DNA of 64,000 bases from Escherichia coli (lineage in GTDB: Bacteria; Pseudomonadota; Gammaproteobacteria; Enterobacterales; Enterobacteriaceae). This document shows, one piece after another, positions 59,320 through 60,817 of this stretch. The first letter of the stretch is position 1; each line of letters begins with the position of its first letter. A program made the position numbers and the translations under genes. The notes under the pieces were generated by a model that was not told the DNA's origin, made no database searches, and worked only from the letters and a program-made list of their open reading frames with translations. Where the stretch lies: NCBI RefSeq assembly GCF_045037415.1, contig NZ_CP173438.1; one strand, 5' to 3'.

Positions 59320-60817
59320 TACCATTTAACTGAAAGCCACCATAACGTCTTTTTGACTACATTTATGATAATGCGTCTCATTTTGTTTTCGTTTTTTTGT
59401 TCAGGGAAATTTTCCGAACATCAGTGATAATGAGGGTTTTGTTGTTTTTGCTTCTGCAATGTTTGAGGACTGTTCCTGGAGACGATTCGTTGCTTGTGAG
59501 CAAGAGGTGGTCCGCTTTACTGGACAAGTTTTGCATTTGTTGAGTGGTGAAATGGAAGTAAAAAGAGCCCCTTTCTGGCAATGGTTGAAAAAGTCAGTAG
59601 CGTGTGACAGTAAAAGCTAACATAAAGTGATTATCGTATGATTATGACAATGACTTATAACTTTTATGAAAAGAACAACAGAAACTACGAAGCCATAGCA
59701 GATTCCTGAGACCATGTTTTCTGAGGTAGAGAAAATAATTCCAGAGTAAATCTGTTCTGTTTTTAGGACAGAAAACTCCATGTTGGCTGTAAAAGTGAAA
59801 AATTAACACCCAGTATGTATGGAAGTCTGAAGATGTTGAGAATGTCGGTATGATACTATATACACATATTTTACTAAGTATTTTTACTAAGCATTTCAGT
59901 AAGTGTTATACACGTATTTTCATAAACACTTGTAGAAGTGTTTTCGTTAAGCATTGCTATACACATCCAGTTTAGTAAATCTTTACGTTAACTAAATCAG
60001 TTTAATGCTGCTGTAAAACCTTTCTGCTTCAGCAATCAATCTGCTATTCGATTTTACTGATGTTACGTTTAACCTTTCCTGAGATTTCGAGTTTTGAAGT
60101 TAGCATGAGAAAAGTATCTTTACGCTAAATCAACCCGAACTTTCCTGAAGTAATCTGACGTTCTTTTCGATGTGCTTACGACGATTCTGTTAAACGACTT
60201 TCTGGATGTTTTGATAACAATCAGATTGAGGCATTAACGATTCCTGACGTTTTCTTTTCCGTGTAAGGTCATTCTTTTTGTCATGAGGTTTCTTCTTGCA
60301 TTGCGAAAGTGTGATGAACGGTTTTGATATTTTGATTCAGATGAGGTTTACGTTATCGCAGTTAATCGTTTTTATGGTGTGTTGAAAAGTAACGTTTTCA
60401 GGATAAGAAAATCGATTCTGATATTGGTAGTTTTTGTTCTTGTGGTGGGGTTATCTGTAAACAGGTTTTAAGCGCGCTATTCGGCTCTGTGATCGAGTTG
60501 TGTGGTTAAGCTGTAGGTTTGGTGTTGTTGTTGATTTGCATTGCCAGGAAGCGTTCTGGTTGTGTTTCTGGTGTTTTGTTCGAATGTTCAGTGGATCCTT
60601 TCCCTTCTGACTTTTCTCGTCGTCCATGTCGTTTTTAAATCCATTCATGCCGTTGTTTTACGTTTTACTACCGTGTGCAGGATTATCTTTTCGCTGCGGG
60701 ATGGTTTGTTCCGTTCAATCAGGAGCCATTGGTGTTGCTCAATGGTGAAATACCGTAAAGTTTTACCGCGGTGATGAATGATGTGAAGTCAATCCAAATC
60801 AACGGAGATCTCTCATC

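Follow-up and report, generated by a model that had tools for sequence, protein, structure and literature searches.

A non-coding block with one-strand direct repeats upstream of a YagK/YfjJ HUH gene in Escherichia coli islands: a possible enlarged control region

Positions 59320-60817 of a 64,000-nucleotide (nt) stretch of Escherichia coli DNA (contig NZ_CP173438.1; the whole stretch is called the window below) are located within a transfer RNA (tRNA)-type genomic island, immediately upstream of a gene coding for a 243-amino-acid (aa) protein of the YagK/YfjJ family. This segment is a composite. Its first part, 59320-59731, is the tail of a cargo cassette, and its second part, 59732-60817, is a conserved non-coding block of 1,086 nt that is always found upstream of the 243-aa YagK/YfjJ gene. 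Our preferred interpretation, which we hold only tentatively, is that the block might be an enlarged upstream control region that acts at the DNA level, with a promoter, an operator and a leader, to govern this gene for an HUH-type protein. The block is neither a gene, a small RNA (sRNA) nor a pseudogene. It is described neither by Rfam, by RefSeq annotation nor by the searchable literature, in which we also found nothing on the function of YagK/YfjJ proteins. On the present characterisation, the block would belong to the AT-rich xenogeneic promoter/leader regions that carry a repeat array, and it is not a new class.

Among approximately 45 loci, homology ends at position 58080, resumes abruptly at 59732, and then continues into the YagK-like gene. 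Because of this gap at 58081-59731, the first 410 nt of the segment are assigned to the tail of a cargo cassette, and the original prediction, which had treated the 1.5 kb as one unit, has to be revised. The cassette-tail origin of these nucleotides, the divergence of the block at or above synonymous rates and the replacement of internal portions by gene cassettes are points that the original prediction did not contain. A megablast search located the block in 1,879 of 5,426 complete E. coli genomes (~35%), at 2,934 places that are nearly all chromosomal, with up to 8 copies per genome. RefSeq annotation almost always leaves the block empty, or else marks only short spurious open reading frames (ORFs). 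Alignments were made from 8 and later 36 distinct homologs, drawn from E. coli genomes and a metagenome scan. Other collections contributed little: a YagK protein scan with one genome per species yielded only two loci, one (L037) of the 55 loci from a 16-mer scan of viral contigs is a true homolog, and a plasmid collection and a phage collection gave four matches and none, respectively. The block and the gene that follows it include these features:

59736-59749, plus strand: left-edge motif TAATTCCAGAGTAA, without variation where the conserved block starts
59827-59864, plus strand: predicted sigma-70 promoter P1, with a -35 element TTGAGA (59836-59841), a 17-nt spacer and a -10 element TATACA (59859-59864)
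59859-59980, plus strand: variable-number direct-repeat zone, with three TATACACRT copies and TTTTACTAAGYATT-type sub-repeats
59981-60740, plus strand: T/G-rich, ORF-free leader or spacer of low constraint, with six TTACG, three TTCCTGA and further TTTAC motifs
60543-60560, plus strand: weak hairpin of terminator type with a T-rich run after it, within the sole alignment window that has a consensus-fold signal
60753-60768, no strand assigned: palindrome CCGTAA-AGTT-TTACCG, about 50 nt upstream of the start codon, a candidate operator
60818-61549, plus strand: YagK/YfjJ gene ('inovirus Gp2 family'), 243 aa, with the Shine-Dalgarno (SD) sequence GGAG at 60804-60807

The left edge of the block carries a motif that is specific to this gene family. 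When the block is aligned locally with the spacers upstream of yfjJ and yagK in E. coli K-12, both alignments select the same 14-15 nt at this edge. Each of the two K-12 cryptic-prophage loci (25 and 38 kb) has a single TAATTNNAGAGTAA, with 0 expected, placed in the orientation of the gene within the spacer that immediately precedes yfjJ or yagK. The boundary motif is also present in Enterobacter ludwigii islands that have the same layout from the GTPase gene to the YagK gene.

About 95 nt past the boundary motif is the predicted promoter P1, which overlaps an extended -10 element, TGATACTAT (59851-59859), and which ranks among the highest-scoring plus-strand promoter candidates of the block. 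The sequences TGnTAYTAT and TTG(A/C)NA are invariant in all 36 distinct homologs. P1 and the K-12 yagK promoter share GTCTSAA, GATGTTG and GGTAT..ATA..TATA, and a promoter-like GATGTTG..GGTAT.ATA..TATA is found 50-95 nt downstream of the boundary motif in the K-12, Enterobacter and window contexts. A 16-mer of this element, TGTTGGATNGGTATTA, is common to K-12 yagK and Enterobacter. When P1 is compared with the yagK promoter (TTTAGA-16-TATAAT), some words are shared and the hexamers are conserved, the spacing differs, and a profile search is not significant. The K-12 yagK-yagL spacer that carries TTTAGA-16-TATAAT was recovered in vitro as an RpoD-holoenzyme site by genomic SELEX (systematic evolution of ligands by exponential enrichment), together with an H-NS site (PMC3946193), and it also appears in SELEX lists for minor sigma factors (PMC5493296). 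For P1, promoter activity is what the sequence suggests. In the E. ludwigii loci (L118/L119:1690-2902), the boundary motif and a yagK-type promoter are followed by a 1.1-kb gene-free stretch that is enriched for GATAA/TTATC (11+7 versus ~4 expected) and for GGNTAT (9 versus 1.9), and that includes TGATAAT words resembling Fur-box hexamers.

The repeats begin at this promoter-like element. As proposed from the sequence of the window alone, there are three TATACACRT copies about 50 bp apart (59859, 59907 and 59958; spacing 48 and 51 bp), where 0.6 copies would be expected in the entire 64 kb. Submotifs shared between copies had also been proposed, and these are present as a tandem of TTTTACTAAGYATT at 59869 and 59882. 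Peaks of k-mer autocorrelation lie at 12, 25 and 48-49 bp, and the base period is ~12.3 bp. A second, degenerate family built on a TTTACG unit likewise stood up to counting, since TTACG (6 versus 1.1 expected), TTCCTGA (3 versus 0.12) and TTTAC (9 versus 2.0) are all in excess on one strand and are mostly retained in homologs.

Repeat conservation in relatives had been named as a check on the original prediction, and the repeats proved to be conserved, in kind though not in number. Bounded by TGTTGAGAATGTCGG and ACATCCAGTTTAGTAAA, the zone measures 132-251 nt in the 36 homologs and includes 2-7 [AGC]TACAC cores, all on one strand and each followed by RT(A)TTTT, with at least one TTTTACTAAGYRTT-type sub-repeat between cores. 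The most divergent version (L078/L081) has TTTCATTARG as its sub-repeat and retains the TACAC cores despite diverged flanks. ATACACGTAT, the common form, makes a small palindrome. The claim of regular phasing holds only for the window copy, whereas the cores of the homologs are irregularly spaced at 19-51 bp.

The repeats do not form an RNA or DNA stem, because an 8-bp hairpin at 59925-59944 that is perfect in the window loses its pairs in homologs without compensating changes. The inverted repeat that had been noted at 59712/59769 does exist, but it is one of 35 comparable pairs, its left arm belongs to the variable cassette, and homologs lack it even when they carry the same cassette. Two other readings of the repeats were rejected. 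Phased A-tracts give a 10-12 bp signal only within the repeat zone, where it arises from the 12-13 bp tandem unit. A reading of TATACACAT as a DnaA box was judged by eye to fail, since the invariant ATACAC omits the box-defining T1, T2 and A9.

Given that the first TATACAC copy is positioned at the -10/start region of the putative P1, the array looks like a reiterated promoter-proximal segment, and this observation shapes our model. The region would open with the family-specific boundary motif TAATTCCAGAGTAA, and ~95 nt on would come the sigma-70 promoter-like element, a relative of the promoter of yagK in K-12. P1 would probably be silenced by H-NS, as in the K-12 paralog. The TATACAC / TTTACTAAG repeats would represent copies of the -10/start-site-proximal promoter segment, which slippage or unequal recombination might have amplified to 2-7 copies. 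Most likely, a DNA-binding protein that governs promoter firing would occupy these copies as an array of sites, the candidates being a repressor, the HUH protein, H-NS and RNA polymerase. The next ~850 nt would form a weakly constrained, U-rich and C-poor leader or spacer, ending in a strongly conserved proximal segment, with a site that resembles a palindromic operator and with the SD sequence before the gene. The original prediction had offered either a protein-binding array or a structured non-coding RNA. Repeats that share one orientation, are conserved in kind and start at a promoter-like element beside an HUH gene are compatible with the former, whereas the latter fares poorly, as described below.

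The last ~75 nt before the gene (60745-60817) are the best conserved part of the block, at 96%. The palindrome in this segment plausibly acts as an operator or as an element of the 5' untranslated region. No convincing sigma-70 hexamers were found in this proximal segment. The same island carries a second YagK/YfjJ paralog past the right end of the window (L001:18696-20560), which is 189 aa long and 22% identical. It is preceded by ~1.2 kb of ORF-free T-rich DNA with three direct repeats of TATnnTAYTCACTCC, and the upstream regions of the two paralogs have no sequence similarity beyond composition. A remnant of the proximal leader of the 243-aa gene follows the second paralog (L001:20490-20560), with the ATG now CTG, and a palindrome copy, CGGTAA-AACC-TTACCG, survives in it at L001:20496-20511. 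The leaders of 189-aa YagK genes from Pectobacterium (L117:3950-4000) and Enterobacter (L118:3950-4000) share CCGGTAATGGWTATGAAC...ACCGGAG, in which CTCCGGT can pair with the SD-containing ACCGGAG, a possible SD-sequestering hairpin. In homologs, a terminator-like hairpin (AAGGGCGT-CAGCCA-ACGCCCTT) is located right after the stop codon of the YagK-like gene (L002:7880-7905 and L008:5840-5865), and the window copy (61575-61600) has lost its left arm.

The top strand of the block is rich in G and T, as the original prediction had stated. Base fractions over 59730-60817 are A 0.247, C 0.160, G 0.212 and T 0.381, and G+T reaches 0.64 over 60400-60817. GC content is 32-42%, the skew maxima are +0.37 for GC and -0.36 for AT, and the strand skew ends at the YagK-like gene. 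The skew may reflect resistance of a long untranslated leader to Rho, a deamination bias on a strand that is often single-stranded or non-template, or the descent of the block from T-rich repeat units. The absence of a convincing ORF, also proposed at the outset, is borne out. The longest ORF in the segment is 77 aa, none has the same start across all 36 homologs, six-frame translations searched against PHROGs gave nothing below E = 0.1, and indel lengths among homologs are not multiples of three.

The spacers upstream of yagK (in CP4-6) and yfjJ (in CP4-57) of K-12 are the closest points of comparison for a control region. They resemble the block in having the same downstream family, TAATTNNAGAGTAA, a related promoter-like element and a (G/T)ACAC word at the predicted start region. 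However, they are only 152 and 271 nt long and carry single copies of these words, whereas the block spans 1,086 nt with three TATACAC copies and a T/G-rich stretch of ~850 nt. The block also resembles the H-NS-silenced 'promoter islands', being AT-rich acquired DNA with reiterated -10- and -35-like words (TATACA, TTTAC), and H-NS binding is documented for the paralogous K-12 spacer. A consensus scan gave two promoter-like sites versus 6.0 +/- 2.5 in shuffled sequences, and thus the block is not a dense promoter island.

Several observations temper our enthusiasm for the block as a control region. Promoter scores are modest (<=7 bits), and a consensus promoter scan found none inside the block. 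A profile of the block searched with nhmmer against K-12 gave nothing significant, so its homology to the yagK and yfjJ spacers is carried by short motifs only. In addition, a gene cassette on the minus strand lies inside the block in some lineages, such that a P1 transcript would have to cross that gene. Classical operator and iteron arrays are not spaced as irregularly as these repeats, which lie 19-51 bp apart. Most of the block changes no more slowly than the 4-fold sites of the gene beside it, and two of its internal segments can be dispensed with. Due to this fast divergence and to the dispensable segments, much of the block may lack function.

Carried to its end, this last point leads to an alternative that we consider unlikely, in which everything beyond the proximal ~100-180 nt is an essentially functionless AT-rich spacer, a neutral stretch of xenogeneic DNA that is coated by H-NS and carried along with the HUH gene. 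Slippage repeats would accumulate in such DNA, and the block would be only a tolerated landing pad for cargo cassettes. In nearly all pairs, block identity (0.79-0.91) is no higher than identity at the 4-fold sites of the adjacent gene (0.82-0.98), which itself is under purifying selection, with a ratio of non-synonymous to synonymous rates (dN/dS) of 0.2-0.4. Conservation is patchy: it is about 0.9 at 60304-60420 and 60480-60560, 0.96 in the last ~50 nt, and lower elsewhere.

Whole segments have also been replaced in separate lineages. In L077 and L111, 59862-60164 is exchanged for 1.8 kb (L077:2537-4367), and in L116 and L120, 60349-60643 is exchanged for 1.15 kb (L116:2593-3755; L120:3348-4500) carrying a minus-strand gene for a 176-aa hypothetical protein, WP_000778605.1. 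The inserted genes at both internal positions are on the minus strand. Many other genomes share the 60349-60643 exchange, and all those that carry it retain only the gene-proximal ~177 nt of the block. The block contains several variable-number repeats, and no conserved structure or ORF was found in it. One such repeat, a (GATGGT)n microsatellite near position ~60420, has 1-7 copies in homologs (L084, L096, L089 and L076) and is lacking in the window.

Neutral drift nonetheless leaves several features unexplained, including the enrichment of motifs on one strand and a strand skew of 1 kb. Conservation of the left-edge motif and of the promoter-like element extends to paralogous contexts and to a second genus. 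In L078/L081 the TACAC cores have survived the divergence of the sequence around them, and hundreds of genomes keep a full-length block.

The nature of the neighbouring protein raises another alternative, also unlikely in our estimation, in which the TACAC repeats are 'iterons' of the adjacent Rep-fold protein and thus an origin-like recognition region. A nick made by the YagK-like protein in one strand nearby would start the excised island on rolling-circle replication or transfer, and the T/G skew would mark the strand that is exposed as single-stranded DNA. The 243-aa protein matches the Pfam families YagK_YfjJ_C (2e-38) and REP_ORF2-G2P (1e-7) and gives weak PHROG matches to replication initiators, and no sequence relative was found in the PDB. 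A comparison of five proteins shows no variation at H101 and H103 (HUH motif) or at Y213, and K216 does not vary in either alignment. The protein retains the HUH histidines and a Tyr-x-x-Lys motif. It has the HUH nuclease or origin-binding fold, like that of NS1, Rep and RepB; His-hydrophobic-His, a catalytic Tyr and the HUH fold are all present. Its residues 153-189 (61275-61385) form a Ser/Pro/Asp-rich insertion that is absent from relatives of 189-214 aa and is predicted to be disordered, with a predicted local distance difference test (pLDDT) score of <50.

Rep-fold HUH proteins typically bind short direct repeats beside their cleavage site, and this habit keeps an origin-like role for the array alive. 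As a comparison set we used HUH initiator loci, namely the distal and proximal direct repeats (DDR/PDR) of pMV158 RepB, the Rep-binding element (RBE) of adeno-associated virus (AAV) Rep, the ACCA repeats of parvovirus NS1 and the iterons of geminiviruses. As in these loci, a Rep-fold gene that could encode the cognate initiator adjoins short direct repeats of one orientation in AT-rich non-coding DNA. The repeats of the block number at least three and are conserved in kind, and direct repeats of another sequence are found in the long, T-rich and ORF-free DNA that precedes the second YagK paralog.

However, the block departs from these loci in several respects. No conserved hairpin or candidate nick site was found near the repeats, and the 59925-59944 hairpin decays uncompensated. 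The repeats are irregularly spaced at 19-51 bp without helical phasing, and they are positioned ~950 bp from the gene. There are no helicase or other replication genes nearby, no DnaA box or organisation of a DNA unwinding element (DUE) was seen, and the skew ends at the gene. Moreover, the spacers of the K-12 relatives, at 115-260 nt, are without arrays. YagK-243 is a candidate for binding the repeats.

A more ambitious version of this idea, which we regard as quite doubtful, holds that the boundary motif, the promoter and the TACAC array together constitute the recognition region of the YagK-like protein, as an HUH 'Rep/ori' module of the very common tRNA-associated islands that carry the block. 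If true, such a module would enable an island, once excised, to replicate or to be mobilised in single-stranded form, and it might mediate cassette turnover at three positions inside or beside the block. An origin would be considerably more interesting, if shown, than a control region. Should the block be only a silenced leader, the result would be an ordinary one that is still useful for annotation.

An RNA-level function of a long non-coding RNA or leader transcribed from P1 is improbable. Examples of such an RNA would be a U-rich sponge, lacking structure, that captures an RNA-binding protein by means of the reiterated motifs, or a P4-like leader with repeats that a small immunity RNA would target. 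In favour of this idea, every repeat motif is on one strand, and a U-rich composition with more G than C, judged from base counts, suits the escape of a long untranslated RNA from Rho. P4-type elements are known to have long leaders with repeated targets. Like the leader immunity systems of P4 and P1 (CI/C4 RNA), the block is a long untranslated region with direct repeats in an island of the P4-integrase type. Unlike these systems, the block has no match to the C4/CI family, and no complementary or antisense copy of its repeats was found in the 64-kb window.

The consensus fold also argues against a structured RNA. When 56000-64000 was searched against Rfam with cmscan, no match at E<=1 fell inside the block. 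Consensus folding of 16 diverse homologs, on both strands and in 150-column windows, gave alifold z-scores of -2 to +2.5 on both strands, near or above zero as a rule. The one exception, at 60519-60657 on the plus strand only (z = -3.8), is a GU-rich hairpin signal that rests on two haplotypes and one G-C to A-U double change. A check for an own promoter and terminator of the block found the conserved promoter-like element and one weak terminator-like hairpin. Low constraint, replaceable internal segments and a variable repeat number that would alter any RNA product add to these objections, and the proposal of a structured non-coding RNA is not supported. Outside the block, a weak Rfam match to c4-a1b1 (C4 antisense RNA targets) is located at 56193-56236 on the plus strand (18.6 bits versus a gathering threshold of 46.7, E = 0.46). 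This match, beside the WYL/HTH regulator gene and 3.5 kb from the block, is probably noise.

Finally, it is very improbable that the block is a decayed or overlooked coding sequence, such as a pseudogene remnant or a gene for a type-I-toxin-like peptide at 60379-60471: although a hydrophobic plus-strand frame there (LKSNVFRIRKSILILVVFVLVVGLSVNRF; 30 codons in the window, 25-33 in homologs) is open in 34 of 36 homologs and overlaps the only region with 3-nt periodicity of variable sites (60392-60631, a marginal p = 0.02-0.04 uncorrected over 16 windows), T-rich DNA gives hydrophobic frames by chance, no six-frame translation found a match, and the segment is missing from the L116/L120 lineage. 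The peptide gene itself was rejected, since the start varies (GTG/TTG/GTT), there is no SD sequence, and haplotypes differ by ~6 non-synonymous versus 2 synonymous changes; the frame is probably a by-product of T-richness. An intact gene in homologous islands would have pointed to a pseudogene, and no such gene made from the sequence of the block was found. The genes that L077 and L120 carry within the block were inserted there and are not homologous to it.

The block is a fixed and unannotated backbone piece of genomic and pathogenicity islands, situated at a hotspot for cargo. What is new here are its boundaries, the family-wide boundary motif and a probable promoter with an expandable repeat array. 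These findings provide a handle on how the islands control the HUH gene, and on whether the HUH protein acts upon island DNA.

The genes and cassette to the left of the block are as follows:

57120-58004, minus strand: YeeP/YfjP-type GTPase gene
58081-59731, plus strand: variable cargo cassette, comprising a 376-aa orphan gene and its 3' tail (59320-59731)
58189-59319, plus strand: orphan gene, 376 aa

The island segment is 100% identical to that of strain 219 (NZ_CP020514.1). Farther left is a minus-strand CP4-like backbone with genes for CbtA/YeeU, a RadC-like JAB protein, antirestriction and DUF932 proteins and a WYL/HTH regulator. To the right of the YagK/YfjJ gene are a restriction endonuclease gene and then insertion sequence (IS) debris. 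The slot at 58081-59731 holds at least six unrelated cassettes of 1.6-2.8 kb in different islands. It is sharply bounded by the GTPase gene and the non-coding block, and is also seen in L002, L003, L008, L010, L083, L104 and others. No shared motif that would point to site-specific capture was seen at the cassette junctions, and the cassette proteins, including the 376-aa orphan, have no match in NCBIfam, PADLOC or PHROG. In CP4-57 of K-12, the AbpAB and RnlAB defence systems are located between yfjJ and the GTPase gene yfjP.

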